Positions 9,383-50,982 of a stretch of DNA of 64,000 nt are shown one piece after another (position 1 is the stretch's first letter; each line of letters opens with the position of its first letter). The notes under the pieces were generated by a model. That model was not told the DNA's origin, did not search any database, and was given only the letters and a program-made list of their open reading frames with translations. This DNA is from an uncultured Alphaproteobacteria bacterium (GTDB lineage Bacteria; Pseudomonadota; Alphaproteobacteria; CAAGCB01; CAG-977), in contig CALXOZ010000001.1 of the NCBI GenBank assembly GCA_944390195.1, forward strand, positions 154,663-218,662, given 5' to 3'. The position numbers and the translations under genes were made by a program.

Positions 9383-9411
9383 TTGATATAATCAAGCAAA
9401 CAGAGTAAATA
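9383..9411 (+). promoter_or_regulatory. sigma70-like promoter for tRNA-Arg (TTGATA-N17-TAAATA)
   Basis: TTGATA at 9383-9388 and TAAATA at 9406-9411, 11 nt before the mature tRNA 5' end. The -35 region also forms an imperfect TTGAT-N3-ATCAA dyad. Confidence 0.35.
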
Positions 9412-9422
9412 CTCTTATAAGT

Positions 9423-9499
9423 GGTCTCGTAGCTCAGCTGGATAGAGCAACAGCCTTCTAAGCTGTGGGTCGAGCGTTCGAATCGCTCCGAGATCACCA
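9423..9499 (+). tRNA. tRNA-Arg (anticodon TCT)
   Basis: Manual cloverleaf fold: acceptor GGTCTCG/CGAGATC, D-stem GCTC/GAGC, anticodon stem ACAGC/GCTGT with loop CTTCTAA, T-stem GAGCG/CGCTC with loop TTCGAAT, discriminator A, encoded CCA. Confidence 0.9.
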
Positions 9500-9505
9500 A
9501 TATCA

Positions 9506-9534
9506 CCCCCTTGGTCTTCAAGGGGGTTTTTTTT
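9506..9534 (+). terminator. rho-independent terminator after tRNA-Arg
   Basis: Hairpin CCCCCttggtcttcaaGGGGG followed by a T8 tract. Confidence 0.7.
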
Positions 9535-10603: not shown

Positions 10604-11596
10604 TCAATTACTTAATACCGCTTTGATTCCTAACGCTATTTCGTAAGCTAAATTTATTGGAACAGCATTGCCAATCATTTTATAAGCATTATCAGTTGCA
10701 TTATAAATAAATTTAAACGTATCTGGAAATCCTTGAATTCGAGCTATTTCTCGTATCGTCATTCTGCGATATAAATGTTCTTTTTCTTTAACAAAACAAT
10801 ATTTGTTTTCCTTAATTTTTATCATTTTCGGTGCTTGAGGGTGTAACTGGCATTGACGTCCAGAAGCCTGGACGGTGTAGGCTTGTTCATCCCATGATTT
10901 TACACGGTTTCTACTCATAAAAATGGGAGAGTATGCACCAGTAAAATATTCATTATTGTTTATAGCTTCAGGATTGTGATGATTGTTTTTTCCCGCCGGG
11001 ACAGCAGTAAACTGTAAATCCCAAATAACATCTCGTAGGGTTTTTTTCTTATAATCGTTTACAGTTGAACCACATGGAAATCTAAAATGGATATTTAAAT
11101 CGTTTCTAAAACCAATATAAAATACTCTTTTCCTTTCTTCTGCAACTCCATAATCTTTTGCATTTACCATTGTTAGCGATACATCATAACCAGCTTCTTT
11201 AAACAGATTTAAAATACTTTGAACGGCTTCTGAATTTCTGTTTGCAAGCATTCCACTGACATTCTCAGCGAGAAAAAAGCGAGGCTGTTTTTCCTTTAAA
11301 ATTCTTATATAATCATAAAAGAGTCGTCCTCTTTCATCATTTATACCGCGTAAAGCTCCTGCTTCTGACCATGATTGGCATGGAGGACCTCCGATAATTC
11401 CATCAATTCCACATGGAAAATCAGAAGCGCCTATCTTTCGAATATCACCCTCAATCAAATGTGTATGTGGATGATTTATTTTGAATGTTTCCCAAATGGT
11501 TTTATCAAACTCATTAGCAACAGGAATTTCAAATCCCGCTTGTTCAAATCCCAAATCTAAACCACCGCAACCACTAAAAAGACTGATAATCTTCAT
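10604..11596 (-). CDS. DNA (cytosine-5)-methyltransferase, M.NgoPII/M.HaeIII-like (GGCC)
   Basis: Near-collinear similarity to M.HaeIII/M.NgoPII as I remember them: [11 protein letters not shown] (motif I), GGPPCQSWS (motif IV PC), [41 protein letters not shown] present. Confidence 0.9.
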
Positions 11597-11615
11597 AAAG
11601 ATCTCCCTATATATA

Positions 11616-12452
11616 TTACTTACTAAATGAAATTAACTTCGCTTCGTTTAGTTGAGCGGGATTGTCAGGGTTTTTAATTCTAATATCTTCAATTTTTAAG
11701 TTTGGTGTTTTTTGCTCTAATTCTAAAAGATCTTGGGTATTATCAAACTGTCTCCATTTGTTATTGTTAATTATGCTCATAAAGTTAAAAGATTTGGATG
11801 TTGTTTTGTAAACATAATCAAAAACTCGCCAAGGATTTTCAATACCCCACATACCTCTAACTCTTAAATAAGTAATCCCTAACGGATCAATGCGATTAAT
11901 ATGTCCAAGCTCTCTTGTCTGAGCAAATTCTATTTCTGGAATCGTTTCAACACCGTTTTTAATGGTTTCTTTTATTTTTTGATAACACTCCTCGGAAGCA
12001 CAATAGTCCATTCCATAAACCATACAGAGCTGCTTTAGTTTATTGTTTTTTACAACACCTACCACATAAATTATATCTTTTTCTGACCAATTTTCAGCTT
12101 CTCGACAAGCTTTTGAAATCATAGGACTTGATGATTTAATTTTACGTTTTGGGTAGCTACTATTTAGAGCAAGAGCTGAACTCTCTTGCTCTATTTTTTT
12201 TACCTCAATCGCATCTCCATTTTTTAGCATCGCATCTGGTGGATTCGCATTATTTCCCAAATAAGAAAAAACATTTGAGATCATTTCAATTCTTTTGTTT
12301 CCCGATTGATCTAAGGTGTTGGCAAAGATATCTTTTACATATTCTTCCAGTGCGTCTCCAGTATTATTAGCACGGTTGTTTCCTAGATTATCATTAAGAA
12401 TTTGTGTTCTTGGATTTTCAATTAAATTTACAATAGCATTTATGATGTTCAT
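11616..12452 (-). CDS. type II restriction endonuclease, probable R.NgoPII-like (GGCC) partner of the methyltransferase
   Basis: 278-aa ORF 19 bp upstream of the methyltransferase on the same strand, in R-then-M order as in NgoPII. The length matches R.NgoPII. RBS AAGGAAA. Identity is by context; the endonuclease sequence itself was not independently recognised. Confidence 0.6.
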
Positions 12453-22200: not shown

Positions 22201-22295
22201 CTTGGATTCCCACGTAATATTGTTGCGTTTGCTTGTATTGTCTTTATGGAAAGGAATGAGGATAAAAAAGTGGTATATAAAATAATTCTTTTCAT
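19224..22295 (-). CDS. autotransporter (beta-helix passenger with degenerate G-[TN]-A-[YFV]-G-[IM]-Y repeats; N-terminal ankyrin-like repeat)
   Basis: Signal peptide MKRIILYTTFLSSFLSIKTIQA. Many GTAYGIYA / GNAYGMRT / GTVYGIYAL repeats. C-terminal beta-barrel ends ...LTLSF. DKNGITALCRATMENNAEAYQTLRKAGAN resembles an ANK repeat. Confidence 0.8.
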   Translation of the reverse strand: MKRIILYTTFLSSFLSIKTIQANATILRGNPSLAMSQQEIYDLAKTGNQDRLFYVSNIDVTDKNGITALCRATMENNAEAYQTLRKAGANESAACFKQIPKANQNAVLNKSDVATWSMRTSASESTFFGLTKTELVTGGLIIAAGIAIGSNSESGSNQDSSVPSGYYNENIVKTNDAYSFFYGIYLDSGSPFNIGGNSYDGIGNITLTQNSSSSVFGIYSEIEYTTNNYYNGKGTIHIENNRSGDAYGLYSSHSGTSSSVHNASGGSYFSDDKEKSSQGFISIVNNGTGNAFGIYSEYASLYNAISAGSYGTALGKIYIRNVSSGNAYGMRTDNGSVYNSSGTNASGIIEIDNESEGTVYGIYALNSSVGSPSGTSDILIKNQGTGTAYGIYAKDMIYEAQDKITITNEGNGTAVGIKLNETNVSNFSGSLAMYNLSSGTVIGLIGENLFNHGRVVLDNVSGTAIGMYGKNNQNPENSTILLENLGTGTSVGMYATGNYAINSGEIIINNLSSGTAIGMYAPVGTTVFNEGTIKIIRTAVNNNGNIITPDSETGGTAYGIYAEVGATVHNTGVITLSGNENGEEIKLNGATLLNSGIFSADSINLDSYGGNVTLEQGGVFQATNNISGNLNISENFVQNGFQTSYTVQDAIDSPDVSKLKLSSKSVLFNAGLSENNKDVVLTMRPFDSLVSSRSLADFLTRNYTLQNNESFFSILKSIDSVSAFSDSLDGLTGTSVFKDFTRHDMSAMRKLNFALNQQMSAHFATKEDPVWSFSNVSEAANSKISNEKAFSLIGINVSPSINIGYGMAADNYETTNKESSKQHTSVSFMFPVSFQKNRLKTVSSIQYGYAKEYYKRQSGQFGSYYGFIERNSYSFQNEVRYSFDFKGINIEPSVQANAILYDQSGKEDEKAYSLTIPRNSFLSVESGLGLNIGYQKKTEDNDMLYLNFSSMIYREFASPYSLKVGMNGMNGTFDLYDEKQKYRSEINFSLAYKTDKTKFSIEFSHFIEQEKYSQLSADLTLSF

Positions 22296-36719: not shown

Positions 36720-37781
36720 ATGAAAGAAAAGTTCCTTGTCTTGAAAAATTTTTTTCAAAAAATACATCGAGTGTGTTTGGGGAAGATTATCGGGATTTTT
36801 GCCATATTATGGGAAAAAACGAAAATTTTTTTGAAATCGGGAGTCGATTTTACGCCTCCGAGTAAACAAAAAATCGTTTCTTTCGTGATCGGATGGTGGC
36901 ATTGGTTGTTGGGAATTGTTTTTGCCTTCCTTGTCCTGTATTACCCCGCCGGCGCCTTGTTGTACCACAGAATTGATCTTAATCCGGCGTTCGGCATTGA
37001 AAAACAAAGCGATAAGGCTGAAAATCAAGATGTGCAAATGCTTAAAACCTTGTCCGCTTTAATTCAAAGAGAAGTTGATCAAAATGCTTTCACACCGGCG
37101 CTACCGTTCTTTTTCCCCAGTGTCCTTTTGGATAATACGCCTGCTTTTCAAACGGGGATCGTCTTTGGCATTCAAAAAGTAACAAACGCTTTAAGTGAGG
37201 CCAATCCTGAAATCGAATCGTTAAAACAAGCCGCGGATTTGTTGACATATCCCGTTTCCGTCTGGCATGTCCACAATTGGAAACCGGCTGTTTCTTCGGT
37301 GAAAAAATATCGTACGGCGGCTCAGTTGATCCAAGAATACCAAGAAAACATCATTTCAAAAAAGATGACCTTCAATCATTCAAAAACCGCTGTCGAATTA
37401 ATAGTTTCCCGTCTGGCGGAAGAGATTGAACTTTGTGTCGAAATCTTGGATCGTCAAATTCAATCCGGAGAAAGGAAAATCCTTGATATAAAAGCGGATG
37501 ACATATTTTATGAAATAAAAGGGCGGGTTTATGTTTATTATTTGATGTTACGCGATTTAAAAAAGGATTTTGAAACCGCCTTTGACAACGACCGGTCGGT
37601 GCAAAAGCTTCAAACCGGCATGATTGTTTTGAAAAAAGCTTTGTATTTGCAGCCGTTGGTTGTTGTTAATGCTTCTGCGGAAACTCAGTTCGCTCCGAAC
37701 CATTTGTTGGGAATGGGATTCTATTTGTCTCAGACTGCTCTTGATTTGGTACAATTAACAAAGGTGTTAAAAAGTGAGTAA
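36720..37781 (+). CDS. hypothetical membrane protein (true start uncertain)
   Basis: Long ORF with a transmembrane segment IVSFVIGWWHWLLGIVFAFLVLYY. 8-nt overlap with the downstream gene suggests an operon. Confidence 0.45.
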   Translation: MKEKFLVLKNFFQKIHRVCLGKIIGIFAILWEKTKIFLKSGVDFTPPSKQKIVSFVIGWWHWLLGIVFAFLVLYYPAGALLYHRIDLNPAFGIEKQSDKAENQDVQMLKTLSALIQREVDQNAFTPALPFFFPSVLLDNTPAFQTGIVFGIQKVTNALSEANPEIESLKQAADLLTYPVSVWHVHNWKPAVSSVKKYRTAAQLIQEYQENIISKKMTFNHSKTAVELIVSRLAEEIELCVEILDRQIQSGERKILDIKADDIFYEIKGRVYVYYLMLRDLKKDFETAFDNDRSVQKLQTGMIVLKKALYLQPLVVVNASAETQFAPNHLLGMGFYLSQTALDLVQLTKVLKSE

Positions 37782-38742
37782 AAAACGTCTTTCCATAATT
37801 ATTGTTTGTCTTTGTCTTGTTATTGCAATCCCGTTATGTTTCTTTTTGACACAGACTCAAATGCCTGTCTTGAAAAAAAACGAAGAAGGGGTCTTTATCC
37901 CGAAAGTTTCAACAGATCAGTTGCAACGCATTTTCAAAGAATATAATTACAATATGTTGCATCATTTAAAGGATAAACAGCCTGTTCCGCGATTGTTCGT
38001 TCAATCCGTCCCAGAAGATTTCAATCGTGAAAAATATGACGAGGTTCGTCCGGCGTTGTTTTTTGAAATGATGTTGCCTGTCATTTTGAAAGCCAATGAA
38101 GCGTTGTTAGCGGAACGCGAAAAAGTTTTGCGTTTGAAAGAAGAGTTTGATCAAACGGGAACGTTAACACAAGAATCTGAAAAAGAACTGGATGAATGGG
38201 TTAAACGTTATGATGTAAAGCCTTCCGACGATTTGGCAACGGTTTTTAGTGCGTTGATCCCCCGTGTCGATGCTGTAACGCCGACTCTTTTATTGACCAT
38301 GGCGGCACAGGATTCCGGGTTTGCAACCAGTATCTATGCCAGAAAATATAACGCTATTTTTAATCAAAGGGATTGGAACGGACAAGGGGTCATTCCGGAA
38401 GAAAAACAAAAAGAAGGTCCTCAGTACAGAATTAAAACGTTTAATTCTTTGTATGATGCGATTATCAGTCAAATTCATTATCTGAATACAAACGGGTATT
38501 TTGAAAATTACAGAATAGCCAGAGCAAAATACCGTCGCACAAATAATCCGATGAGAGGGTATTCCATAGCCCATTTATTGATTAATTTCCCCTATAAACC
38601 TTTTAAATATCCTGATATCATAAAGCATTTGATCTTACAGTATGAAATAACGCCTTTGGATTTTCAGGTGTTGGATAAAACGATGCCTTCGGATTCTCAG
38701 ATGCCGGATGAAACAACGCAACCGGATCGGGCAAGTGATTAA
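37774..38742 (+). CDS. Bax-like / glucosaminidase-domain (COG2992-like) protein
   Basis: N-terminal transmembrane anchor. LLLTMAAQDSGFATSIYARKYNAIFNQRDW resembles the FlgJ/Bax glucosaminidase core (AQAALESGWG). Confidence 0.45.
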   Translation: MSKKRLSIIIVCLCLVIAIPLCFFLTQTQMPVLKKNEEGVFIPKVSTDQLQRIFKEYNYNMLHHLKDKQPVPRLFVQSVPEDFNREKYDEVRPALFFEMMLPVILKANEALLAEREKVLRLKEEFDQTGTLTQESEKELDEWVKRYDVKPSDDLATVFSALIPRVDAVTPTLLLTMAAQDSGFATSIYARKYNAIFNQRDWNGQGVIPEEKQKEGPQYRIKTFNSLYDAIISQIHYLNTNGYFENYRIARAKYRRTNNPMRGYSIAHLLINFPYKPFKYPDIIKHLILQYEITPLDFQVLDKTMPSDSQMPDETTQPDRASD

Positions 38743-38758: not shown

Positions 38759-39889
38759 ATGTCTGCTCGGGCTGAATTGGTGAAAAATGAAAAAAATGCT
38801 TCCGTCGAATTGATTTTATCGGAAGACTGGCTGTTGGAAAACGGTGCTTCCGATAATGATCAAAATATCTTTGATCTATTTGAAAAAAACGATTTTAAAC
38901 AAATAAAATTGGACGGGAAACAAATAGGACGATGGGATAGCCGGTTGGTTGCGTTTTTAGTCCATGTGATTTCTTTGTGCAAAAAAAATAATATTGAATA
39001 CCGCTTGATAGATTTTCCAAAAGGAATCGATCCTTTGTTGGATCTGGCTTTCAGCGTTCCGGAACACGTCAGTCCTCCGAAAGGGGATACGACTCAATCC
39101 TTTCTGTCGTATCTAGGGAATGTTGCTTTGTATTCATGGGCTGCGACACAAAGGGTCGCGCTGTTTTGCGTTAAAATATATGAAGCGTTGATTCGTCTGA
39201 TAACAAAAAAAGCCGTCGTGCGAAAAGTCGATATCTGGTTTGAAATTCAAGATGCCGGTGTCAACGCTTTTTTGATTGTTTCTTTGATTTGTTTTTTAGT
39301 CGGGTTGATTTTAGCTTTTGTCGGTTCGATCCAATTGAAAATGTTCGGAGCGCAGATCTATGTTTCCAGTTTGGTCGCCATTGCCGTAACGCGTGTCATG
39401 GGGGCAATTATGGGTGGAGTCATCATGGCGGGCAGAACAGGGGCGTCTTATGCAGCGACATTGGGATCTATGCAGGTTAACGAAGAAATAGACGCTTTGA
39501 AAACAATGGGAGTCTCTCCGTTTGATTTTCTTGTCCTGCCGCGTGTTCTGGCATTGTCTTTGATGATGCCCTTATTAACTGTTTATGCCGATTTCATGGG
39601 AATTATGGGAGGTGCTTTCGTCGGTATATTCATGTTGGGGTTATCGCCGGAAGACTATTTCAGAATGACTTTAAAGGCTTTATTTATGAAAAACATTCTG
39701 ATCGGTATCGTTCATGGAACGGCATACGGTATAATCATTGCCGTGTGCGGATGCTATCAAGGCATTAATTGCGGCAGAAATGCTTCCGCTGTTGGGAAAG
39801 CGACGACAGCGGCTGTTGTTTATTCCATTGTATGGATGACTGTAGCCACGGCGATTTTAACATTCATTTTCAGTGTGATCGGAGTTTAA
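38759..39889 (+). CDS. mlaE: MlaE-family ABC transporter permease with N-terminal STAS (MlaB-like) domain
   Basis: C-terminal half carries MlaE transmembrane blocks (GAQIYVSSLVAIAVTRVMGAIMGGVIMAGRTGASYAA...EEIDALKTMG). The N-terminal approximately 120 aa is STAS-like. Confidence 0.8.
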   Translation: MSARAELVKNEKNASVELILSEDWLLENGASDNDQNIFDLFEKNDFKQIKLDGKQIGRWDSRLVAFLVHVISLCKKNNIEYRLIDFPKGIDPLLDLAFSVPEHVSPPKGDTTQSFLSYLGNVALYSWAATQRVALFCVKIYEALIRLITKKAVVRKVDIWFEIQDAGVNAFLIVSLICFLVGLILAFVGSIQLKMFGAQIYVSSLVAIAVTRVMGAIMGGVIMAGRTGASYAATLGSMQVNEEIDALKTMGVSPFDFLVLPRVLALSLMMPLLTVYADFMGIMGGAFVGIFMLGLSPEDYFRMTLKALFMKNILIGIVHGTAYGIIIAVCGCYQGINCGRNASAVGKATTAAVVYSIVWMTVATAILTFIFSVIGV

Positions 39890-39891: not shown

Positions 39892-40647
39892 ATGCCTGAA
39901 GCCTTTCTGGAAATAAAGGAAATGACCGTTGCCTATGGCGATAATGTCATCATGAAAGACGTTAGTTTTACGGTAAATAAAGAAGACGTCTTTATTATCA
40001 TGGGGGGGAGCGGATGCGGAAAAAGCACTTTGTTGAGTGTGCTGACAGGGTTGAAGCAACCTGCAAAAGGAACGGAAATATTTGACGGGAAAGTATTTTG
40101 GGGAAACGGAGCGACAAAGGATGATCGTGATGCTTTGATGCGAAAAGCGGGAATCCTTTATCAAAGCGGGGCTTTGTGGTCGTCGATGACGTTGGCTGAA
40201 AATATAGCTTTACCTTTGGAACAATACACAAAATTATCTAAACCGGAAATAAGGGATCTGGTGGCTTTAAAATTGGATTTGGTCGGATTGGGCGGTTTTC
40301 AGGATTATTATCCCGCCGAAATCAGTGGCGGTATGAAAAAAAGAGCCGGTTTGGCAAGAGCGTTGGCTTTGGATCCTAAAATCGTTTTTTTCGACGAACC
40401 TTCCGCCGGATTGGATCCGATCAGTTCAAAAAATCTGGATGACTTGATCTTACAAATTAAAGATAACTTACATACAACCATTGTGATGGTTACTCATGAA
40501 TTGGCTTCGATCTTTGCAATCGGGACAAATTCAATCTTTCTTGACGCTCAAACAAAAACGGTCATTGCCAAAGGAAATCCGACAGATCTTTTGAAAAATC
40601 CACCGAATAAAACATTAGAACACTTCTTAACCCGTGGAGAAAAATAG
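39892..40647 (+). CDS. mlaF: MlaF-family ABC transporter ATP-binding protein
   Basis: True start MPEAFLEIKE (ATG at 39892, GGAG RBS, directly after the mlaE stop). Walker A GGSGCGKST, signature ISGGMKKRAGLARAL, Walker B IVFFDEPSAGLD. Confidence 0.9.
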   Translation: MPEAFLEIKEMTVAYGDNVIMKDVSFTVNKEDVFIIMGGSGCGKSTLLSVLTGLKQPAKGTEIFDGKVFWGNGATKDDRDALMRKAGILYQSGALWSSMTLAENIALPLEQYTKLSKPEIRDLVALKLDLVGLGGFQDYYPAEISGGMKKRAGLARALALDPKIVFFDEPSAGLDPISSKNLDDLILQIKDNLHTTIVMVTHELASIFAIGTNSIFLDAQTKTVIAKGNPTDLLKNPPNKTLEHFLTRGEK

Positions 40648-40656: not shown

Positions 40657-41565
40657 ATGCAAAAAGCCAATCCAAAATTGATCGGAGTCTTTATTCTTGC
40701 GGCATTTTTCATCTTTATTGCCACTTTTTTATTGATTAATAGAGACCGTTTTTTCTCAAGATCGATAAAATATGTCCTTTATTTCCAAGGATCGATCAAG
40801 GGATTGAATGTCGGTTCTCCTGTCGTTTTCAATGGGGTTCCGATCGGACGGGTCATTCGGATTTCTTTGGTAACCGATGTTCAGACTTTGCAAATCCGCA
40901 TACCGGTCTATATCGAAACAAATAAAAACAGCTTTATCGTGTTGAATGCGGGAAGCAGATCCAGTGAGAAAGATATCCGAATCTTTACTGAAAAAATGAT
41001 CGCAAAAGGTTTGAGGGCAAAATTGGAAAATCAAAGCTTGTTGACAGGACAAATGATGATAGGATTAAGTTATTATCCTGACACTCCTGTGATCTTGCAA
41101 GGAAACAACCCTAAAATAATAGAAATACCGACTTTGCCTTCCACAAGTGAAGAACTGTTGCAGACTTTACAAAAGTTGCCTTTGCAAAAAACGTTGATAA
41201 ATCTTAATGTTTTATTAAGTGAAGCAGACCGGTTGTTGAAGATGATTAATAGTGATTCTCCCGATGTGATCAAAGATGTTTCTTTAATGATGGACGCTTT
41301 GAGGGATGTTGCGCAGAAAACCCGTAAAGCTTTGGGCTCGTTTGACAATGTCGCACATGAGGTTGAAAATACGTTGGAAGTATTTAATAACTCTATGAAA
41401 TCATTCGATAATTCTGTAAAATCATTTCATGAGGATTCTCCGACTATGTTGGATCTTAATAAAATGTTGCGCGATTTCAGTACCGCAGCCCGGTCTTTAC
41501 AAAATTTAGCGGATTATTTGGAACGTCATCCCGAATCGTTGTTAAGAGGAAAAGGAGAAAATTGA
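40657..41565 (+). CDS. mlaD: MlaD / MCE-family substrate-binding protein
   Basis: N-terminal transmembrane anchor then MCE domain (LNVGSPVVFNGVPIGRVIRISL). Confidence 0.8.
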   Translation: MQKANPKLIGVFILAAFFIFIATFLLINRDRFFSRSIKYVLYFQGSIKGLNVGSPVVFNGVPIGRVIRISLVTDVQTLQIRIPVYIETNKNSFIVLNAGSRSSEKDIRIFTEKMIAKGLRAKLENQSLLTGQMMIGLSYYPDTPVILQGNNPKIIEIPTLPSTSEELLQTLQKLPLQKTLINLNVLLSEADRLLKMINSDSPDVIKDVSLMMDALRDVAQKTRKALGSFDNVAHEVENTLEVFNNSMKSFDNSVKSFHEDSPTMLDLNKMLRDFSTAARSLQNLADYLERHPESLLRGKGEN

Positions 41566-42164
41566 TGAAAAAAAATCTTTTTATGCTTCTTACCGGTTTT
41601 ATCTTTCTTGGGGCATGCGGATTTTCCAAACCGGCGACGTTTTATGTTCTGGACAGTAATGATCTGCCTCAAATCAGTACGACACTTTCCAATGCCGATC
41701 ATGTGTTAATCGGAATCGAACCGGTCTTTATGCCGGATTATCTGCAAAAACCTCAGATCGTTATCCGTCAGGCGGATTCCGTTACTTTGACGGCTTCGGA
41801 ATTCAATCGGTGGGCAGAGCAGTTGTCTGATGCTTTTCCTCGCGTATTGGCGCATGCAATCTCTGAAAAAATGGGCTATCCTGCGGCAAAGCAAATTAAT
41901 TTGAATAGAAATTTGTTCCCTTATCGCCTGTTTGTCGAAGTTTTAAGGTTTGATGCCGTGTTCGGTAAAGAAGCCGTTCTGGATACATGGTGGACAATTC
42001 TGTCAAATTCTGGCAAACTGATTTACCGCACGCGTTCGACTTTGGTTGTTCCGGCTGGTGATGATTATTCGAGCGTTGTGGCGGCTGAACAAAAATTAAT
42101 AAAAGAACTGGGAAATGTTATAGCGTACTATGCTGAAGGTTTTCTGGTGAAGGATAAAAAATAA
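41562..42164 (+). CDS. ABC-type transport auxiliary lipoprotein (Mla-associated)
   Basis: Lipoprotein signal MMKKNLFMLLTGFIFLGACG. Follows mlaD with a 4-nt overlap. Confidence 0.6.
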   Translation: MMKKNLFMLLTGFIFLGACGFSKPATFYVLDSNDLPQISTTLSNADHVLIGIEPVFMPDYLQKPQIVIRQADSVTLTASEFNRWAEQLSDAFPRVLAHAISEKMGYPAAKQINLNRNLFPYRLFVEVLRFDAVFGKEAVLDTWWTILSNSGKLIYRTRSTLVVPAGDDYSSVVAAEQKLIKELGNVIAYYAEGFLVKDKK

Positions 42165-43135
42165 TGTCTGTTTTACAACAAAAGTTCAATTCTTTTATTC
42201 CCGAACAGGAATATGGCGATTTAAAACAAAATTTAAATCCTCCCTTTGAAATCGTCGGAGATGAAAAAACGAAAAAGCGTATCACCCGTATGATCAATCA
42301 GATTGTCGTATCGGAAACCGGACGGAAAACATTGGAAATTGCATCCAAAGCGGGATACCAGTTGGGAATGGAGTTCGCTTTCGGCTGTAACGGGGGATGC
42401 AATAAGGAAAATAAAAATATTGTGTTAAATCCTGTTAGTGAAGACGATGTTTTGGTTGGTGTATTAATTCATGAATGTCGTCATGCGGGACAGTTTGAAC
42501 GCGGCGAATATGATGCAAGCGATGATAAACGTCCGAGAAACGAAACGATTAAAACAAATATCATGCGTACCAGAGCTGTTGAAGCCGATGCTCAAGCTAC
42601 TGCCGCTCAGGTTTTAGGTGAAATTATGGAAGCCGGAAACGATGAGCCGTTATTTGCTTTTTGCCGGCAAATCGATAATTACCCGATCGCAAAAGCTTTT
42701 CAAAACGCTTTACGCAATGAAAGCGCTTTAAAAGACGGAACTGCAAGAACTGCGGCTTTTTTAGCGTGGTATGAAAACGAACCCATTAAAAAAGCTTATG
42801 ATGAAGCTTATCAGGTCGAAATGATGACAAGACGGGAAAAAAATAATACCAACCGATCAGATACTTATTCCGTTTCACAACCTGCTTCACGGATCGTTAA
42901 GGAACTGTGCTTGAATAATGACGGCAGTTGTTATTTTTCCGATAATCCAAAAATTTTGGAAACGGGGCACTATGTCGAAGTCAACCGTCAAACGGCGGCA
43001 AAAATAAAAGATCTGATTGATCGAGCCCCAAGTGCCAAAAAATCAATTGAAAACAACCCTGTTGAAGACGATTTTAAAAAATCCTCTTTCAAAACGGCGG
43101 CTCTTACAGCAGTTCTGGCAAGAAAAACACGTTAA
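42164..43135 (+). CDS. hypothetical protein with HExxH zinc-metallopeptidase-like motif, translationally coupled (TAATG) to the Mla operon
   Basis: VLIHECRHAGQFERGE contains HExxH. No signal peptide. Stop/start overlap with the upstream lipoprotein gene. Confidence 0.5.
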   Translation: MSVLQQKFNSFIPEQEYGDLKQNLNPPFEIVGDEKTKKRITRMINQIVVSETGRKTLEIASKAGYQLGMEFAFGCNGGCNKENKNIVLNPVSEDDVLVGVLIHECRHAGQFERGEYDASDDKRPRNETIKTNIMRTRAVEADAQATAAQVLGEIMEAGNDEPLFAFCRQIDNYPIAKAFQNALRNESALKDGTARTAAFLAWYENEPIKKAYDEAYQVEMMTRREKNNTNRSDTYSVSQPASRIVKELCLNNDGSCYFSDNPKILETGHYVEVNRQTAAKIKDLIDRAPSAKKSIENNPVEDDFKKSSFKTAALTAVLARKTR

Positions 43136-43314
43136 CTGCAAGGATCTTCCTTTTAAAGCAGGCAAAAATTATTTTGTCTGCTTTTCTTGTTTTTAAAATT
43201 GAAAGAACAGATTGCCTCTTTTTCAAAATTTCTTAACAGTTAACCCGACTTTAAATCCTTCAGAGGTAATGTTTCGTTATTCTTCTTCATATAAAAAAAC
43301 AACTTTATAAAAAG

Positions 43315-45177
43315 ATGGCGAAAAAAATAAAAAATCAAACAAAAAAGAATAAAAACACGGATGATTCTGTAAAAAAAGAAAAAAAAAGAGTCTTTTTTCA
43401 AAAAGGGTGGAAAAGAAAAATATTCTTGCGCTTTCTTCTTTGTTTGATCGGTGCGATTTTCATATATGTATTGTATTGTATTGCAACTTTGCCGGATATT
43501 GAAAAAGCAATTAAAAATACGCGTGCGCCAAAAATGTATATATTAGCCGCGGACGGTTCGGAAATTGCTTTTTACGGATCAAAATACGGACGTCCTGTCA
43601 GCTTGAAAAATTTGCCGTCTCATGTAACTCAAGCGATCATTGCAACAGAAGATAAACGCTTTTATTCTCATTTCGGTATTGATCTGCGTTCCGTCTTACG
43701 GGCTTTAAGCGTTAATTTGATTAAAGGAAGCAAAGCCCAAGGGGCAAGTACTTTAACCCAACAAGTTGCTAAAAATCTGTTTTTATCTTCTGAAAAAACA
43801 TTTAAACGGAAAGTTCAGGAATTATTATTGGCTTTGTGGCTGGAATATAATTTGACGAAAGATCAAATATTGACGATTTATCTTAATCGTGTTTATTTCG
43901 GATCCGGAACTTACGGTATTGAAGCTGCCGCCCAAAAATATTACGGTGTCAAAGCAAAAGATTTAAGTATGTATCAAGCAGCCGTTTTAGCCGGAGTCTT
44001 GAAAGCTCCCAGTCGTTATAATCCGTTAACGCATCCTGAACGGGCGAATGAACGAGCAAGACTTGTTTTGGCTAATATGGTCAAAGCGGGGTTTGTTTCT
44101 GCTTTAAAAGCTTTGGATATCGCGGAAACAGGAGTGAAAACTCAGCAGGCGAAGAATAAATCCGTTTTTTATTTTACGGATTGGATTGCTGATGAAACCG
44201 AAGCTTATTTGGGCAGTGTCGGGCAAGATATTATTGTTAAAACAACCTTGATCCCGAGTATGCAAGAAACGTTAAATCAAAAAATTGTTCATGCTCTTGA
44301 TTCCGATAAAGCCAAAAATAAAAAAGTCGGACAGGCGGCCGGAATTGTTATGGATGAAAACGGAGCCGTCTTGGCAATGGTTGGTGGAAAGGATTATCGT
44401 TCAAGCCAGTTTAACCGTGCTGTTGATGCCAGACGTCAAATCGGGTCGGCAATAAAACCGTTTGTTTATTTGACCGCTTTTGAAAAAGGGGCGAAGGCAA
44501 ATGATATTGTCCAAGACAAACCGTTATATTTGAATGGATGGAGTCCTAAAAACAATAACGGAAAATATTATGGAGAGATATCTTTGCATGATGCCTTGGT
44601 TTATTCGGTCAATACGGTTGCTGTTGCTACAGCAATTAAAACGGGGGTGCGTTCCGTGTTAAAAAAAGCAAGGAAATTCGGAATAGTTAAATCCGATTGT
44701 CAGGCGAACGGAGCGTTGGCATTAGGAGTATGTCAATCAAGATTGATTGATGCCGTTGCCGCCTATGCTTCTTTGCTTAATGGCGGATTTGCGGTAACAC
44801 CTTACGGTATATCGGAAATTATCGGGCAAAACGGGGAGATATTGTATAAAAGATCCGACGGGGGAAGGGCGCGTCTGGTTGATCCTGTTTATATCGAAGA
44901 AATTGATGCCGCTTTAGCCGATGTTATTAATAAGGGAACGGGAAAAAGAGCAAACCCGACTGTTGAAGCCAGAGGAAAAACAGGAACGACCCAAAATTAT
45001 CGCGATGCTTGGTTTATCGGATATACGGACAATATAGCGGCGGGAATTTGGGTCGGGAATGATGATGAAACGCCAATGGTTAAAGTCGGCGGAGGGGGCT
45101 TGCCCGCTGAAATCTGGAGCGGTGTTGTTCATGACATTTCTTTACCGCCTTTGTACGAGGACATTGCCAACCCTTGA
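43315..45177 (+). CDS. class A penicillin-binding protein (GT51 transglycosylase + transpeptidase), PBP1A/PbpC-like
   Basis: GT51 motifs EDKRFYSHFGID and GASTLTQQ. Transpeptidase SxxK (GSAIKPF), SVN, KTGTT. N-terminal transmembrane anchor. Confidence 0.85.
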   Translation: MAKKIKNQTKKNKNTDDSVKKEKKRVFFQKGWKRKIFLRFLLCLIGAIFIYVLYCIATLPDIEKAIKNTRAPKMYILAADGSEIAFYGSKYGRPVSLKNLPSHVTQAIIATEDKRFYSHFGIDLRSVLRALSVNLIKGSKAQGASTLTQQVAKNLFLSSEKTFKRKVQELLLALWLEYNLTKDQILTIYLNRVYFGSGTYGIEAAAQKYYGVKAKDLSMYQAAVLAGVLKAPSRYNPLTHPERANERARLVLANMVKAGFVSALKALDIAETGVKTQQAKNKSVFYFTDWIADETEAYLGSVGQDIIVKTTLIPSMQETLNQKIVHALDSDKAKNKKVGQAAGIVMDENGAVLAMVGGKDYRSSQFNRAVDARRQIGSAIKPFVYLTAFEKGAKANDIVQDKPLYLNGWSPKNNNGKYYGEISLHDALVYSVNTVAVATAIKTGVRSVLKKARKFGIVKSDCQANGALALGVCQSRLIDAVAAYASLLNGGFAVTPYGISEIIGQNGEILYKRSDGGRARLVDPVYIEEIDAALADVINKGTGKRANPTVEARGKTGTTQNYRDAWFIGYTDNIAAGIWVGNDDETPMVKVGGGGLPAEIWSGVVHDISLPPLYEDIANP

Positions 45178-45586
45178 AATTTTTAAAGAATTTTCGTTTA
45201 ATAAAATTTCTATTTTGGGAAAAAACGGATTTGTTAAAAATGGAAACGGTATCTTAAAGCTTCTTTTTTAGTTTTTATTTTTAATCTCCGGTGTTTTTAT
45301 GGAAAAATTTGCGTCAGCTTGGGGCGGATAAACATTCCGGATGCGTTATTATATGCCTGAATTTGTAAAATGATAAAAAACATTAAAGAAAAAAATTTTA
45401 TTGGAGAGGCTTTTTGAAAACTCACGGTTGTCATTTTTATGACTAAGTATTTCTTTGTTAAAAAGTATTGCAGGTAAAAAATCTGGTTGAGCTCAGAGCG
45501 GGGGGCTTATAAAAAAAGCGTCCGGGAATAAAATTTCCGGACGCAAAACAAACAAAGGAAGATTGAAAAAAAACAATAAGGAGATA

Positions 45587-46294
45587 TTATTTTATAACGA
45601 TATAAGATTTACAATCCTGTCCTTGTGCAGATCCCATTTCACAAGAGATCACTTCGACTTTTGGTTTTTCTTTCGCCATAGCGGGGCATTTTTCAGAAAA
45701 CAGACCGCGTGTACTTACCAAAGAACCGTTAGGTTTGATATTATTTAAAATGACGGGAGATGTTTCCCCTAAAATTGTATATTCAAGTTTCATTTTTTTG
45801 ATGGGAGTGTCCGTACGGTTTTGAACGACAAGCTTCCATGTGCAATTCATTGTGTGACCAGTCAAATCCCGGTAATTGAAATCAGTGATATAAAACCAGA
45901 TTTCTCCTTTGGGCGGAGGCGGAGGAGGAGCCGGCTGTTGAACGGCTGCTTGTCCGGTTGCCGTTTTGTTTTCCAAAGCTTCAAAAGAAGGTAATTCATC
46001 TTCACTTTCGTTGTTTGAATTGACCGTTTGCGATGAAGTAGCCGTTTGTGTTTCATTTTCTTCTTGTATTTTGGGACGCGGCCTGAAAATCGGGCGCGTT
46101 TGTTGTATCGGTTGTTTATTTACACTGTTTTCTTGTTTCTCCGAACTTTGTTGCGGGGTCGTAACCTGTGTGTCTTTTGTGGTAAAACCGGAAGATGACG
46201 TTGATTTTGTTGTATATTGAGCTTGAACAGATGTTGCCAGTCCGCTCAAGATCAAAGAAAAAAGGAATAAACGATTAAAACGCATGCTAAACAC
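45587..46294 (-). CDS. secreted Pro/Thr/Gln-rich hypothetical protein
   Basis: Signal peptide MFSMRFNRLFLFSLILSGLATSVQA. PAPPPPPPKGE segment. C-terminal Cys-containing globular part. Confidence 0.5.
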   Translation of the reverse strand: MFSMRFNRLFLFSLILSGLATSVQAQYTTKSTSSSGFTTKDTQVTTPQQSSEKQENSVNKQPIQQTRPIFRPRPKIQEENETQTATSSQTVNSNNESEDELPSFEALENKTATGQAAVQQPAPPPPPPKGEIWFYITDFNYRDLTGHTMNCTWKLVVQNRTDTPIKKMKLEYTILGETSPVILNNIKPNGSLVSTRGLFSEKCPAMAKEKPKVEVISCEMGSAQGQDCKSYIVIK

Positions 46295-46394
46295 CTTTTG
46301 ACGTAAAAAGATTTAGATCTTAAACTTATCTTAGCTTAATTCGTTTTTTTTTTATATTAAAAAATATGTTTTATTGAAATTCTCGGAGTTTGTG

Positions 46395-47762
46395 ATGAAA
46401 AAATATTTTTTTTGCGGGATCGGCGGCAGCGGGATGAGTGCTTTGGCCTTAATTTTGAAAAGCAGAGGAAAAAGTGTTTGTGGATCGGATCGCTCATACG
46501 ATGCGGGGTTGTATGTGAAAAAGTTCGCGGCGTTGCGTAAACAGGGGATTGCTTTGTTTGCTCAAGACGCCAGCGGTATAGACAACTCGATAGATGCTGT
46601 TGTTGTTTCTTCGGCTGTAGAAGAAAATATAGCGGACATAGTCAAAGCAAGACAAATCGGATTGCCAATTCTTACGCGCGCAAAAGTTTTGGCTGATTTC
46701 TTGCATGAACATAACGGTATTGCTGTCGGAGGGACAAGCGGAAAAACAACGACAACCGGAATGATCGGACATATTTTGAAAGAAACGGGGCTTGATCCGT
46801 GCGTGATTAACGGTGGTGTCATGTTAAATTATGAAACGGATTCCGCATTGGGAAACGTTATCTTGGGAAAAGGGACTTTTTGTGTAATCGAAGCCGATGA
46901 AAGTGATGGATCCATTGAAATGTATAAACCAGCGGTATCCGTCGTAACTTCCATTTCCTTAGATCATAAGCCGATAGACGAATTGAAAGTGCTTTTTGGC
47001 AATTTCGTTCAAAGGGCTTCCGTCGGAGCCGTATTGAATGCGGATTGTCCTGATGTTATGGATTTGAAAGAACGTAATCCGAATGTTTTGACATTCTCCG
47101 TCCAAGGAAAAAAAGCGGATTTAAGCGCAGTGAATATCACCCCTGTCAAAAATGGTGTTCAATTTTCTTTGGACAACGAGCGCGTTTTCTTGCCCGTTAT
47201 CGGAAAACACAATGTTGCTAATGCGTTGGCAGCCTTGGCTTGCGCCGAAATTATCGGGATTCCCAGAAGTCAGGCTATTGTCGCTTTGAAATCCTTTAAG
47301 GGGATCCACCGCCGTATGGAATTGATCGGAGTAACAAAAAAAGGAATAGCCGTGATTGATGATTTTGCGCATAATCCTGAGAAAATTGCGGCAACTTTGT
47401 CGGCTTTAAAAGAATATGACGGCAGAATAATTGCTGTTTATCAACCGCACGGCTTCAAACCGACAAAAATCATGCGTCAAGGGATTGTCGAAGCTTTTAC
47501 TAACGGTTTGGATTCAGATGACATCTTGATTATGCAGGAAATTTATTACGCAGGTGGAACAACGCAAAAAGACATTTCGGCGAACGATCTGGTAAAGGAT
47601 CTTGAAAAATCCGGAAAACAGGCTTTCTTCATTGCGGACAGAGATCAAATTGAAAATTTTATAAAACAGCGAGCTTGTAAGGGAGACAGGATCGTTATCA
47701 TGGGGGCTCGCGATGAAACGTTAACGGATTTTGCTTGGCGCATTTATGAAGCTGTTGCATGA
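46395..47762 (+). CDS. mpl: Mur ligase family protein, probable UDP-N-acetylmuramate:tripeptide ligase Mpl (MurC paralogue)
   Basis: N-terminal FCGIGGSGMSALALILKSRGKSVCGSD and GGTSGKTTTT P-loop. Located next to ldcA (murein recycling), away from any dcw cluster genes. Confidence 0.6.
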   Translation: MKKYFFCGIGGSGMSALALILKSRGKSVCGSDRSYDAGLYVKKFAALRKQGIALFAQDASGIDNSIDAVVVSSAVEENIADIVKARQIGLPILTRAKVLADFLHEHNGIAVGGTSGKTTTTGMIGHILKETGLDPCVINGGVMLNYETDSALGNVILGKGTFCVIEADESDGSIEMYKPAVSVVTSISLDHKPIDELKVLFGNFVQRASVGAVLNADCPDVMDLKERNPNVLTFSVQGKKADLSAVNITPVKNGVQFSLDNERVFLPVIGKHNVANALAALACAEIIGIPRSQAIVALKSFKGIHRRMELIGVTKKGIAVIDDFAHNPEKIAATLSALKEYDGRIIAVYQPHGFKPTKIMRQGIVEAFTNGLDSDDILIMQEIYYAGGTTQKDISANDLVKDLEKSGKQAFFIADRDQIENFIKQRACKGDRIVIMGARDETLTDFAWRIYEAVA

Positions 47763-47810
47763 AAAAAAAGCTTGCCTTCATACCTGAACATCCGAAAAAA
47801 GAGATGAAAT

Positions 47811-48695
47811 ATGAAAAAAATCGGTTTGTTATCACCGGCTAGTTCCGTTTCTCAAAGTGATTTGGAAAACAGTGTTGTTTATTGGCAAAAGCAGGGGTAT
47901 GAAATTGTTTTTTCAGAAAACCTGTATGCGAAAAACCGTTTTCTGGCAGGAACGGATCAACAGCGTATCGATGATTTGACGGCTTTGTTTGCAGATGACA
48001 GCGTGGATTTTATTGTTGCCGCAGGCGGTGGATATGGGTCTGGTAGAATTTTGAAAAAAATAGATTATGATTTGATCGCCCGCCATAAAAAACCTTTTTT
48101 CGGGTTAAGTGATACAACCGCATTACAAATGGGATTGTTGGCGAAATCGGATCTGGTCAGTTTTTCGGGATATATGATGAAACAGCGTTACGGAAAACCT
48201 GTTTATCCATATACGGAACGCTCTTTATTTGATTGTTTGTCGGCACATTCTCAAATGTTTTACGGCTTGCATCCTTGTTTCAAAGGCGAAACGATTTCCG
48301 GAACTTTGATCGGAGGGTGTCTGTCTTTGGTGACAAGTTTGGTGGGAACACCGTTTTTTCCAATGGTTAAAGATCCGATTCTGATCTTGGAAGATTTGAA
48401 TGAAGAGCCGTATGTAATTGACCGGATGTTGACCCAGATGGATAATGCCGGTGTTTTTGAGGCGGTAAAGGCTGTCGTTTTCGGAACGTTTATTAATTGT
48501 AAAGCCAAAGAAAAAGAGGACGGTACGCTTGACGATGTCTTTGAAGAGTGGAAAAATAAAATGAAACCTCCTTGTTTTTTCGGTTTTCCTTACGGTCATC
48601 AGCCGGAATCCGCCGTCTGGCCCATCGGAGGACGGGCGGAAATCAATCCTGTTATCGGAAGTTTGTGTGTATTCGGAGTGAATTATTATGGTTGA
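47811..48695 (+). CDS. ldcA: LD-carboxypeptidase (peptidase S66)
   Basis: MKKIGLLSPASSV start, GYMMKQRY region, and the overall S66 layout. Confidence 0.75.
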   Translation: MKKIGLLSPASSVSQSDLENSVVYWQKQGYEIVFSENLYAKNRFLAGTDQQRIDDLTALFADDSVDFIVAAGGGYGSGRILKKIDYDLIARHKKPFFGLSDTTALQMGLLAKSDLVSFSGYMMKQRYGKPVYPYTERSLFDCLSAHSQMFYGLHPCFKGETISGTLIGGCLSLVTSLVGTPFFPMVKDPILILEDLNEEPYVIDRMLTQMDNAGVFEAVKAVVFGTFINCKAKEKEDGTLDDVFEEWKNKMKPPCFFGFPYGHQPESAVWPIGGRAEINPVIGSLCVFGVNYYG

Positions 48696-50982
48696 ATTGT
48701 TAGCTCCTGCCGGACAGCTTGATTCCGGTTATGCCGCTTTTAAGTATGGTGCTGATGCCGTATATTTGGGGTTGACTCGCTTTTCGGCAAGAGCTGAGGC
48801 GGAAAATTTTACACAAGACGACTTTGAGAAGTTCGTCCGTTTTGCCCATAGCATTTCAAAGAAAGTCCTTGTCGCTGTCAATACGGTTTTTTTTGAAGAG
48901 GAAATGCCAGAGTTAATTGACACCTTGCAAATAATCGATTCTGAAAAGGCGGACGGCATCATCGTCCAAGATATCGGAACCGCCCGACTGGTTAAAAAGT
49001 ATTTTCCGAACTTGAGGTTGCATGGCAGTACGCAAATGGCTGTCCATAACCGGCAGGGGGTGGAAACGTTGCGGGATTTGGGATTTAAAAGGGTCGTTCT
49101 GGCAAGGGAATTGACGTTGGAGGAAATAAAAGATATTTGCCGTGTTCCCGATATCGAAAAAGAGGTCTTTATTCATGGGGCTTTGTGTTACAGCTATAGC
49201 GGATTGTGTCTGTTTTCTTCGGTCTATGCTTCGCGAAGCGCCAATCGGGGAAAGTGTGTCTACCCGTGTCGAGAGGCTTTCCATATCAACGGGCAGACGA
49301 AACATATCTTTTCAATGAAAGATCTGGCGCAAAATGAAAATGTGCTGTCGCTTGAACAAGCGGGAGTTAGTGCTTTGAAAATAGAAGGACGGAAAAAAAG
49401 TCCTCTTTATGTCAGTGCGGTAACCGATTATTACAGATCGCTTCTTAACGGTGAAAAAAATCAAAAGGTGTTAAAACAAAAACAAAATGACATTTGCTGT
49501 ATCTTCAGTCGTCCGACAACGGATTTATATTTGACGAAAAAGAAAAATTTTGATGTCGTCGATCCGGATGTCGTGGGGCATCGCGGTTTGAAAATCGGTA
49601 AAGTGGAGCATTTTTCATCTTACGGCGGTAAGAGATACATTTGTTTTAAAACAACGGCGGATATTGAACGCCATGACGGCATTCAAATTGATTTACCGAA
49701 AATGTCCAAACCTTTCGGTTTTTCAGCGCAGGATATACGGATTGGCGGAAAACAAGTCTTTGAAGTCAAAGCAAAAAGTGCTGTGGAAATTGCTTTGCCC
49801 GAAAAATCTCCTTTTATTCCTGTTGGAGCTGTTGTGTATCTGGCTTCTTCAGGGGCTGTAAAAAGAACATATCCGCTGGAAAAACCGGAAAAAATCATAA
49901 CTGGAAACATAAAAGCATCCATTCTGGTTTCAATTCAACAGGATTGTGTTTCGGCTCAAGAGGGGAAAAGGCGGGTTTGCATAAGAGGTTCTTTTTCTTC
50001 AGCAAAGTCTTTGGATGCGATGCAAAAGGCGGTCTGTGAAGCTTTTTCCAAAACGGGGAATACACCGGTCATCCTTGAAAATTTGAAAGTTGAAAATCAA
50101 AACGGGCTTTTCGTTCCGCTGTCTGTTTTGAACGATCTTCGCCGCCAACTTTACCGGAAAATTTGCGACGAATATTATTCTGATCTGATTTCTTTGAAAA
50201 ACGTGAAAAAACAAGAGATCTTAAACAATGAAAAACCGGTTTTTCAAACGCTGCCCGAAAGGGGATGTTCATATCATATCAAAACAGACGATGCCGGTTT
50301 GGTGAAATTGTTTTTGCAAAAAAAAGAACCGGTGGACGAGTTTGTTTTTGAGTTGAATTGTCGGGAAAATATTGATCAATTCTTGGATATGCCAAAAACA
50401 AAAATTCGCTTTTCCTTGCCTGCTGTCGCCAGAAAAGATGAAGTCGGACAATTGATGCAAAAAGCAAAAATGCTGTATGATGCCGGTTTCAAAAAATTTG
50501 AAATCGCAAATGTGTGGGGATTGCAATTTTTAAAAGACAAAAAAGTGGATATGGGATTTGATTGGCCGATCTATGTTGCCAATTCTTCTGCCGCTCGTGC
50601 CGTTTTGGATACGGGGGCTTCTTATTTTGTCGTATCTCCCGAAACGCCAGATCCGACGGATCTGTTCGCGGCTTTTCCATTTCAGGCTCAGGCGTTGATT
50701 TACCGCGATCTGCCCCTGTTCGTATCGGAAACTTGTCCGTATGCCGCTTTGAACGCCCGATGTCTGCACTGTTCGGGTATGCGAGAGGAAGTGATAACAT
50801 CAAAATACGGGGAATTTCTTTCTGTCATGAAAAATTGCCGCCATTTCCTGTTGGCAAAAAATCCCGTCGATAAAAAACAAGAAATGTTAAAAAGAAAAGC
50901 CCGTCTGTTGCGCATCGAGTTCATTCATAGAAAAGAAAGCATCGCTAAACGTCTTGATATTTTTCACCGGTTGATATATTAA
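48688..50982 (+). CDS. peptidase U32 family protein (collagenase-like, long form)
   Basis: N-terminal MVELLAPAGQLDSGYAAFKYGADAVYLGL and EGRKKSPLYV are typical of U32/PrtC peptidases. Confidence 0.7.
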   Translation: MVELLAPAGQLDSGYAAFKYGADAVYLGLTRFSARAEAENFTQDDFEKFVRFAHSISKKVLVAVNTVFFEEEMPELIDTLQIIDSEKADGIIVQDIGTARLVKKYFPNLRLHGSTQMAVHNRQGVETLRDLGFKRVVLARELTLEEIKDICRVPDIEKEVFIHGALCYSYSGLCLFSSVYASRSANRGKCVYPCREAFHINGQTKHIFSMKDLAQNENVLSLEQAGVSALKIEGRKKSPLYVSAVTDYYRSLLNGEKNQKVLKQKQNDICCIFSRPTTDLYLTKKKNFDVVDPDVVGHRGLKIGKVEHFSSYGGKRYICFKTTADIERHDGIQIDLPKMSKPFGFSAQDIRIGGKQVFEVKAKSAVEIALPEKSPFIPVGAVVYLASSGAVKRTYPLEKPEKIITGNIKASILVSIQQDCVSAQEGKRRVCIRGSFSSAKSLDAMQKAVCEAFSKTGNTPVILENLKVENQNGLFVPLSVLNDLRRQLYRKICDEYYSDLISLKNVKKQEILNNEKPVFQTLPERGCSYHIKTDDAGLVKLFLQKKEPVDEFVFELNCRENIDQFLDMPKTKIRFSLPAVARKDEVGQLMQKAKMLYDAGFKKFEIANVWGLQFLKDKKVDMGFDWPIYVANSSAARAVLDTGASYFVVSPETPDPTDLFAAFPFQAQALIYRDLPLFVSETCPYAALNARCLHCSGMREEVITSKYGEFLSVMKNCRHFLLAKNPVDKKQEMLKRKARLLRIEFIHRKESIAKRLDIFHRLIY

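Follow-up and report, generated by a model that had tools for sequence, protein, structure and literature searches.

In a 64,000-nucleotide stretch of DNA from an uncultured alphaproteobacterium (GenBank assembly GCA_944390195.1, contig CALXOZ010000001.1, positions 154,663 to 218,662; below, the window is this whole stretch), we found that the operon for an MCE transporter ends with a gene of the DUF6782 family, which, as judged from its sequence, encodes a probable zinc protease. MCE transporters (Mla, Pqi, Let, and mycobacterial Mce) are central to lipid traffic in the cell envelope, and we know of no protease component that has been described for them. The operon is an Mla/Pqi hybrid, in which an Mla-type ABC engine is combined with Pqi-type periplasmic and outer-membrane parts, and a single DUF6782 orthogroup has a conserved place at its end. 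This association appears not to have been described so far, and the same appears to be true of the scale on which the DUF6782 family has expanded and of the C-terminal Arg motif in the family. Tentatively, and with somewhat less than even confidence, we favor the reading that the soluble DUF6782 zincin is a lineage-specific, dispensable accessory protease that is co-produced with the MCE transporter.

The DUF6782 gene is the last cistron of the MCE operon because its start overlaps the upstream stop, no terminator is found before the gene, and a strong terminator-like hairpin follows it (Table 1). The TAA stop codon of the upstream open reading frame (ORF), which encodes a PqiC-like lipoprotein, is located at 42162-42164 and the ATG of the DUF6782 gene at 42164-42166. 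These coordinates bear out the 323-amino acid (aa) ORF with a TAATG overlap reported in a first-pass annotation, which a model had made from the letters of the DNA. An AAGGA Shine-Dalgarno-like box is present at 42150-42154, nine bases 5' of the ATG, and translational coupling of the DUF6782 gene to the gene for the PqiC-like lipoprotein is probable. Between the upstream genes of the operon, there is no hairpin comparable to that at 43155-43194; the other terminator-like calls across the operon are weak stems of 5-6 pairs, including one 5-bp stem-loop inside the DUF6782 gene. The strand opposite the DUF6782 gene contains no ORF of ≥60 aa, and no second DUF6782 copy was found within the window. 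The GC content of the gene is 0.40 and, therefore, typical of the operon and the window; we considered a recent horizontal insertion of the gene and rejected it because this value matches that of the neighboring genes.

Based on Pfam, the window protein belongs to PF20573/DUF6782, a "putative metallopeptidase family" (E 1.6e-50; 172.1 bits vs a cut-off of 27), and the match spans residues 25-259 of the protein and positions 15-241 of the 241 positions in the model. Within this family, the protein is an ordinary member that nothing sets apart and that has the HExxH motif in common with the others. All of its 88 word-indexed homologues carry the DUF6782 domain, and an identical sequence is already present in public databases. 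The family has no characterized member and no solved structure, and membership therefore gives no function. No NCBIfam model matches the window protein, PDB sequence searches with the protein and with its profile gave no relevant match, PADLOC gave no match to a defense system, and the PHROGs matches are weak ones to "metallo-protease" or "peptidase" entries. In the searchable literature, DUF6782 is mentioned nowhere and we found no link of a metalloprotease with PqiC and MlaD, which agrees with the earlier statement that a metallopeptidase is not a described Mla component.

Invariant columns were read from an alignment of 38 homologues with identities down to 26%, while motifs, N-termini, and tails were counted over 252 full-length members of the DUF6782 family. 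The HExxH motif, which is HECRH in the window protein, is present in 251 of these 252 members and is, therefore, not a chance occurrence. The first-pass annotation had named the conservation of this segment among homologues as one of two points on which its proposal would turn, and the segment is conserved. Among others, H103, E104, R106, H107, A108, and Q110 are invariant in the alignment, as are A138, E140, A141, D142, A143, Q144, and A145, which form the motif RAxEADAQA. An E[AS]DA motif is found in 245 of the 252 members, mostly 28-33 residues past the second His of HExxH; in the window protein, the spacing from H107 to E140 is 33 residues. On the basis of these patterns, E140 is the likely third zinc ligand. 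The Glu that had initially been singled out downstream of HExxH, E112 of LIHECRHAGQFE, does not hold up in this role, because paralogues have V, S, or A at this position while the invariant acids are E140 and D142. The catalytic set of two His residues, a general-base Glu, and a downstream Glu/Asp is essentially invariant in more than 250 members, which is the signature of an active enzyme. We conclude that the window protein is most simply described as a zincin whose active site is probably intact and which belongs to a catalogued but uncharacterized family.

The window protein is predicted to be soluble. Over its full length, the 15-aa Kyte-Doolittle mean does not exceed 1.09, and we found no hydrophobic N-terminal or internal segment and no Sec signal or transmembrane segment, in line with the first-pass call that a signal peptide is lacking. 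A hydrophobic N-terminus is present in only one of the 252 family members. Conserved disulfide pairs were considered as a sign of an extracytoplasmic location and rejected because the Cys residues of the window protein vary across the family.

An AlphaFold2 model built on the homologue alignment (predicted local distance difference test [pLDDT] score of 88; predicted template modeling score of 0.85) contains strands at residues 66-69, 77-80, and 85-88, followed by two helices, one with HExxH (94-113) and a long one (129-156) that bears E140. In the model, this small sheet together with the HExxH helix and the E140 helix forms a gluzincin-type arrangement. The C-terminal part of ~170 residues is helical with a small alpha/beta portion, and both termini are disordered. 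Foldseek searches of PDB and BFVD with this model gave no significant match, and, as far as the model can tell, the window protein is without a close structural relative. The best of the weak matches are all zincins, i.e., the minigluzincins selecase, abylysin, and jannalysin (probability ~0.9), IrrE/PprI, Wss1/SprT, M1 aminopeptidases, anthrax lethal factor, and phage IrrE-like, SprT-like, and PolyVal metallopeptidases. Similarly, the sub-threshold Pfam matches of DUF6782 members are to zincin families only: among the 38 aligned members, DUF3920 in 18, Peptidase_M91 in three, and SprT-like in one, and in long members, M78, DUF2268, and one further SprT-like match. Together with the Pfam description of the family and the invariant HExxH, these weak matches support the earlier description of the protein as zincin-like.

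The M48/M56 peptidases include BepA and HtpX, and M48 members function in envelope quality control. Minigluzincins have been described as representing the catalytic scaffold of the M48/M56 peptidases (bioRxiv 10.1101/2020.07.07.192476). In minigluzincins (selecase, proabylysin, and projannalysin), a small sheet and an HExxH helix precede a helix with a Glu ligand, an order that our model repeats with E140 as the putative ligand, and they are the best fold matches, with a Foldseek probability of ~0.9 and a TM-score on the target of ~0.45, although with E values of just 0.3-0.7. However, they have no sequence similarity to the window protein, and only ~80-90 of its 323 residues align; moreover, the window protein has, unlike minigluzincins, an extra C-terminal part of ~170 residues and a spacing of 33 between the second His and the Glu. 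With E values of ≥0.3 and only a partial core aligned, membership of the window protein in the minigluzincins is not supported. The window protein is also comparable to IrrE/ImmA (Peptidase_M78), SprT/Wss1, DUF3920, DUF2268, and Peptidase_M91 (the family of the NleD/HopH1 effectors) in being a small HExxH zincin, but the scores of DUF6782 members against these families are all below the gathering thresholds. Unlike ImmA/IrrE systems, DUF6782 has no helix-turn-helix or DNA-binding partner, and, unlike for NleD, we saw no type III secretion system context. Peptidase_M91 does not match the window protein itself; the best E value among the three sub-threshold members is 0.0064.

Upstream of the DUF6782 gene, the operon encodes an MlaE-family permease, an MlaF-like ABC ATPase, a PqiB-like protein with an MCE domain, and the PqiC-like outer-membrane lipoprotein. 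With the E. coli MlaFEDCB-MlaA system, this operon has the MlaE permease and an MlaF-like ATPase in common, and with PqiABC, a PqiC-type lipoprotein and an MCE protein whose C-terminal helix is long; however, PqiB has three MCE domains and the MCE protein of this operon one, and PqiA is replaced by MlaE and MlaF. Among solved structures, E. coli PqiB (PDB 5uvn; 4.7e-13) is closest to the MCE protein, and NF008070 (PqiB) matches this protein at 1.2e-30 in the C-terminal part only and below the cut-off. For the lipoprotein, a profile search identified PqiC (PDB 8q2c; 4.5e-6) as the closest solved relative, and the lipobox residue Cys18 is invariant; with 40 bits vs a cut-off of 200 for the NCBIfam pqiC model, it is not an equivalog. 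Indeed, all NCBIfam equivalog scores in the operon are below cut-off. Genes for MlaC, MlaA, or PqiA were not found among the larger ORFs of the window that were scanned with Pfam, a scan that covers the window and not the genome. Because an Mla-type engine is joined to Pqi-type parts, the operon is not a classical Mla lipid-asymmetry system. Thereby, the first-pass assignment to an outer-membrane lipid-asymmetry operon of the Mla type stands for the MlaE- and MlaF-like proteins but not for the remainder, for which PqiB and PqiC are the closest solved relatives. To our knowledge, neither the Mla nor the Pqi system of E. coli includes a peptidase gene.

The first-pass annotation had also labeled the MlaE protein as carrying a STAS domain. 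The N-terminal extension of MlaE (encoded at 38759-39180) is real and conserved, with W59-D60-S61 invariant and kept even in distant MlaEFD-PqiC operons, but the STAS label was not substantiated: the extension gave no Pfam match, no PDB sequence match, and no fold match, and a single-sequence model with a pLDDT of 56 did not match a STAS fold. The DUF2333 gene and the gene for a Bax/glucosaminidase-like protein 5' of the MlaE gene are possibly part of the same transcript as the MCE operon; they occur in just one of four flank contexts.

We surveyed the linkage of the DUF6782 gene to the MCE operon with one genome per species and obtained 20 genomes with a homologue of ≥50% identity. In 17 of these, the DUF6782 orthologue is located directly 3' of MlaE-MlaF-MCE-PqiC on the same strand, and the linked orthologues have identities of 55-76%. 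Further linked cases are present on metagenome contigs (L003, L009, L086, L087, and L090). On either side of the five-gene block, the surroundings differ among loci, with four unrelated contexts upstream and at least four downstream, from which we conclude that the five genes have been relocated together. For most of the 19 other linked loci, the distance from the PqiC stop to the zincin start is −4, −1, 0, or +2 nt; in two (L009 and L026), it is 56 nt. In its degree of conservation, the DUF6782 orthologue approximately equals MlaE and exceeds the MCE and PqiC-like proteins. Specifically, identities for MlaE, MlaF, MCE, PqiC, and DUF6782 are 54, 67, 46, 41, and 57% in L009 and 57, 76, 48, 42, and 63% in L024. 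Conservation at the level of MlaE argues for the purifying selection that is typical of a working gene.

DUF6782 is a multi-copy family, which the first-pass annotation had not foreseen. We found at least 7-8 copies per metagenome-assembled genome (MAG) in RGIG8225, RGIG5000, "Acetobacter sp. CAG:977," and HGM16795, and tandem arrays of 3-8 paralogues with ~30% identity to the window protein in L006-L008, L030, L043, L046, and other loci. Altogether, 162 DUF6782 ORFs in 59 paralogue loci represent about 50 orthogroups. We looked in these loci for a constant partner, i.e., a secretion component, chaperone, or immunity gene, and found none, and there are no type IV secretion system genes near them; the recurrent neighbors are housekeeping genes, i.e., adk, pfk, rnhB, rpsU, and a DNA methylase gene. 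A profile search of 1.84 billion cluster representatives identified at least 1045 clusters (50% identity) at E ≤0.001. The named members are all from "Alphaproteobacteria bacterium" MAGs of gut or rumen. An array (L054) is binned in a "Limosilactobacillus gorillae" MAG and a single copy (L069) in a "Bacteroidales" MAG; both are probably mis-binned alphaproteobacterial contigs. Plasmid and phage collections contain no DUF6782 homologue, and the gene is therefore not mobile-element cargo. In long members, the domain is sometimes duplicated, and there is no informative fusion partner. In P0089, P0090, and P0274-P0288 (about 680-710 aa), two complete DUF6782 domains are fused in tandem; this subfamily is abundant, with one 90%-identity cluster comprising 470 members.

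The window protein ends in ...AALTAVLARKTR, and a terminal Arg is present in 207 of the 252 members (82%); the net charge of the 15 C-terminal residues is +3.3. The consensus tail consists of an Ala/Leu/Val patch of 6-8 residues, a Lys/Arg cluster, Gly or Ser, and Arg-COOH, and it matches no known signal. We considered that the tail might be an amphipathic membrane-targeting helix and rejected this idea because its hydrophobic moment is 0.25 compared with 0.28 for shuffled tails. Being non-amphipathic, the tail is more suggestive of a linear signal than of a helix that binds membranes.

According to the reading that we favor, the zincin would be made in the cytoplasm in a fixed proportion to the PqiC-like lipoprotein and would assist the trans-envelope MCE machine as an accessory protease that is lineage-specific and non-essential; it would not be a core part of lipid transport. 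Probably, it would process or turn over a component or client of this machine. The most obvious candidate would be the PqiC-like lipoprotein or its precursor, and the pairing in L023, in which a lone divergent gene for a PqiC-like lipoprotein begins 20 nt past the orthologue (L023:6983-8445), is suggestive in this respect. The tail, with its hydrophobic patch, basic cluster, and Arg, could be a targeting or autoregulatory element. In favor of an accessory function, the paralogues have no comparably constant neighbor outside the DUF6782 family, unlike the MCE-linked orthologue. A zincin gene that is kept through rearrangements and coupled to the gene for an outer-membrane lipoprotein points to possible proteolytic control of the MCE machine. 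Separately, the tail could reveal how little-studied commensal Alphaproteobacteria of the gut and rumen target or export proteins. The finding is a useful lead for the biology of MCE transporters and of gut Alphaproteobacteria, with the limits that the association is found in one uncultured clade, that at least one relative does without the gene, and that the evidence is all comparative.

Several observations weigh against an accessory function. The functional link of the zincin to the transporter is drawn from genomic context alone, and the zincin has neither an export signal nor a mechanism that would connect it to the periplasmic or outer-membrane parts. A close relative (L088) has the same DUF2333-Bax-MlaEFD-PqiC...PBP1A context without a DUF6782 gene; at its place (L088:6550-6900), PqiC is followed by a small ORF on the opposite strand and then PBP1A, which is a natural loss of the gene. 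In three of the orthologue-bearing genomes (L020, L023, and L028), the gene is unlinked from MlaEFD. The homologue in L028 and L004, with 50% identity and 425 aa, is located directly after Mpl-LdcA with no MCE genes nearby, while the orthologue in L020 ends a same-strand run (L020:3265-7864) that is opened two genes upstream by a gene with an Lnb_N domain (lipoprotein acylation); the unlinked orthologues in L023 and L020 may, thus, have a lipoprotein theme. In a PqiC-seeded survey, we obtained 47 more distant MlaEFD-PqiC operons (PqiC identity of 32-39%; at least 1 kb of downstream sequence), none of which has a DUF6782 gene anywhere in the locus, and the transporter therefore works without it. 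Consequently, the synteny with Mla operons that had been proposed as a check is found in most of the related species but not in L088 or in the distant operons, and to a widespread four-gene operon, the DUF6782 gene is an addition that is dispensable and specific to one clade. Finally, a family with at least 7-8 copies per genome, tandem arrays beside housekeeping genes, and a common C-terminal tail looks more like an exported or effector-type family.

The main rival, which we consider possible although on the unlikely side, is that DUF6782 is indeed a family of exported, effector-like zincins, which use a non-Sec route that reads the C-terminal tail and act on host, prey, or extracellular substrates; the copy in the window would then be a passenger that has become established at the 3' end of the MCE operon, is carried along by its transcription, and has no role in lipid transport. 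The copy number, the arrays of 3-8 genes, and the ~50 orthogroups among 162 ORFs would be expected for such a family, as would its confinement to MAGs of host-associated Alphaproteobacteria, the lack of signal peptides, the terminal Arg and basic charge of the tails, and the three sub-threshold matches to the NleD-type effector family Peptidase_M91. It would also account for the loss in L088, the unlinked orthologues in L020, L023, and L028, and the absence from the 47 distant operons. Substrates of type IV secretion have a positively charged or hydrophobic C-terminal signal (PMC8714903), a criterion that the DUF6782 tail fits (charge of +3.3; 82% Arg), although this feature is not specific. 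By contrast, there is no secretion gene, chaperone, or constant partner near the arrays, which have adk, pfk, rnhB, and rpsU as neighbors, and there are no homologues on plasmids or phages. Moreover, the MCE-linked orthogroup evolves as slowly as MlaE, unlike an arms-race gene, and its linkage, overlap of stop and start codons included, has outlasted rearrangement into at least four contexts. A reading that goes further than the one that we favor is that the zincin may be a true, previously unknown accessory subunit or regulator of a trans-envelope MCE lipid bridge, i.e., a dedicated protease by which the PqiC-like lipoprotein or the MCE needle is controlled, with the family-wide -[G/S]-Arg-COOH tail as a new targeting or autoinhibitory signal by which a protein lacking a Sec signal reaches or senses the envelope, and with the paralogues as derived copies that have other clients. 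We consider this version doubtful.

Two further explanations would sever the zincin from the transporter or from catalysis. The protein could be a cytoplasmic housekeeping peptidase, e.g., for murein-recycling peptides or cleaved signal peptides, whose position reflects shared ancestry of gene order. Such a function would fit the lack of an export signal, the peptidoglycan theme of the genes around it (Bax-like glucosaminidase, PBP1A, Mpl, and LdcA), which is seen in the window and at 12 related loci, and the 50%-identical homologue of L004/L028 that directly follows Mpl-LdcA without an MCE operon. However, in L003, L009, L021, L025-L027, and L029, the gene has left PBP1, Mpl, and LdcA behind and moved with the MCE operon; a housekeeping peptidase would be expected neither to be confined to one clade nor to occur in 7-8 or more divergent copies; and the conserved C-terminal tail is left unexplained, making this explanation improbable. 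Less probable still is that the zincin fold is non-catalytic and serves as a binding module, immunity protein, or decoy in which the motif is kept for structural reasons. Tandem arrays of divergent paralogues are reminiscent of arrays of orphan immunity genes in polymorphic-toxin systems, no member of the family has a demonstrated activity, and the searchable literature is silent on DUF6782; yet, the near-invariance of the catalytic set across more than 250 members argues against a purely structural role, there are no toxin genes beside the arrays, and PADLOC gave no match. Altogether, the data narrow the choice between an accessory or regulatory protease and a passenger gene, the two options raised by the first-pass annotation, without settling it.

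Table 1. Features of the MCE operon and its DUF6782 gene (window coordinates)
Feature	Coordinates	Strand	Details
DUF2333 gene and Bax/glucosaminidase-like gene	36720..38742	+	Tightly packed 5' of the MlaE gene
MlaE-family permease	38759..39889	+	PF02405 5.7e-66, residues 162-369; ~140-aa N-terminal cytoplasmic extension
MlaF-like ABC ATPase	39892..40647	+	PF00005 3.2e-26; NF008809 MlaF 7.3e-51, below equivalog cut-off
PqiB-like protein	40657..41565	+	302 aa; single MCE domain, PF02470 2e-11; long C-terminal helical region
PqiC-like outer-membrane lipoprotein gene	41562..42164	+	PF03886 5.2e-29; lipobox LGAC-G, Cys18
TAATG stop/start overlap of PqiC-like gene and DUF6782 gene	42162..42166	+	Read from sequence
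DUF6782 gene	42164..43135	+	323 aa + stop; putative gluzincin-type zinc metallopeptidase; last cistron of the operon; PF20573
HExxH codons, H103-E104-C105-R106-H107	42470..42484	+	Family motif HExRHAxQ; in predicted helix 94-113
Acidic motif codons, E140-A-D142-A-Q-A	42581..42598	+	Invariant columns; in predicted helix 129-156
C-terminal tail ...SSFKTAALTAVLARKTR	43088..43132	+	Hydrophobic patch, basic cluster, terminal Arg; low pLDDT
Terminator-like hairpin	43155..43194	+	13 pairs, then T-run; 3' of the DUF6782 stop codon; end of operon

Elsewhere in the window, the region 3' of the operon (43315-50982) contains a peptidoglycan-themed run of genes for PBP1A, Mpl, LdcA (S66), and a U32 peptidase, and within it, on the opposite strand, a 235-aa ORF with a hydrophobic N-terminus and a Pro/Gln-rich region. 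A 1023-aa ORF at 19224-22295 (−) has no Pfam match, and three more such ORFs are present at 356-3263. A 1191-aa subtilase (Peptidase_S8) autotransporter with a PATR repeat is encoded at 4792-8367 (−) and adjoins fliP (4013-4783), and an NgoPII-type restriction endonuclease together with a C-5 cytosine methylase forms a type II restriction-modification pair at 10604-12452 (−). The sole RNA gene in the window, tRNA-Arg(TCT) at 9423-9499, overlaps the 5' end of the rubrerythrin ORF at 8787-9521 (−); the true start of this mechanically called ORF must, therefore, be located further downstream.

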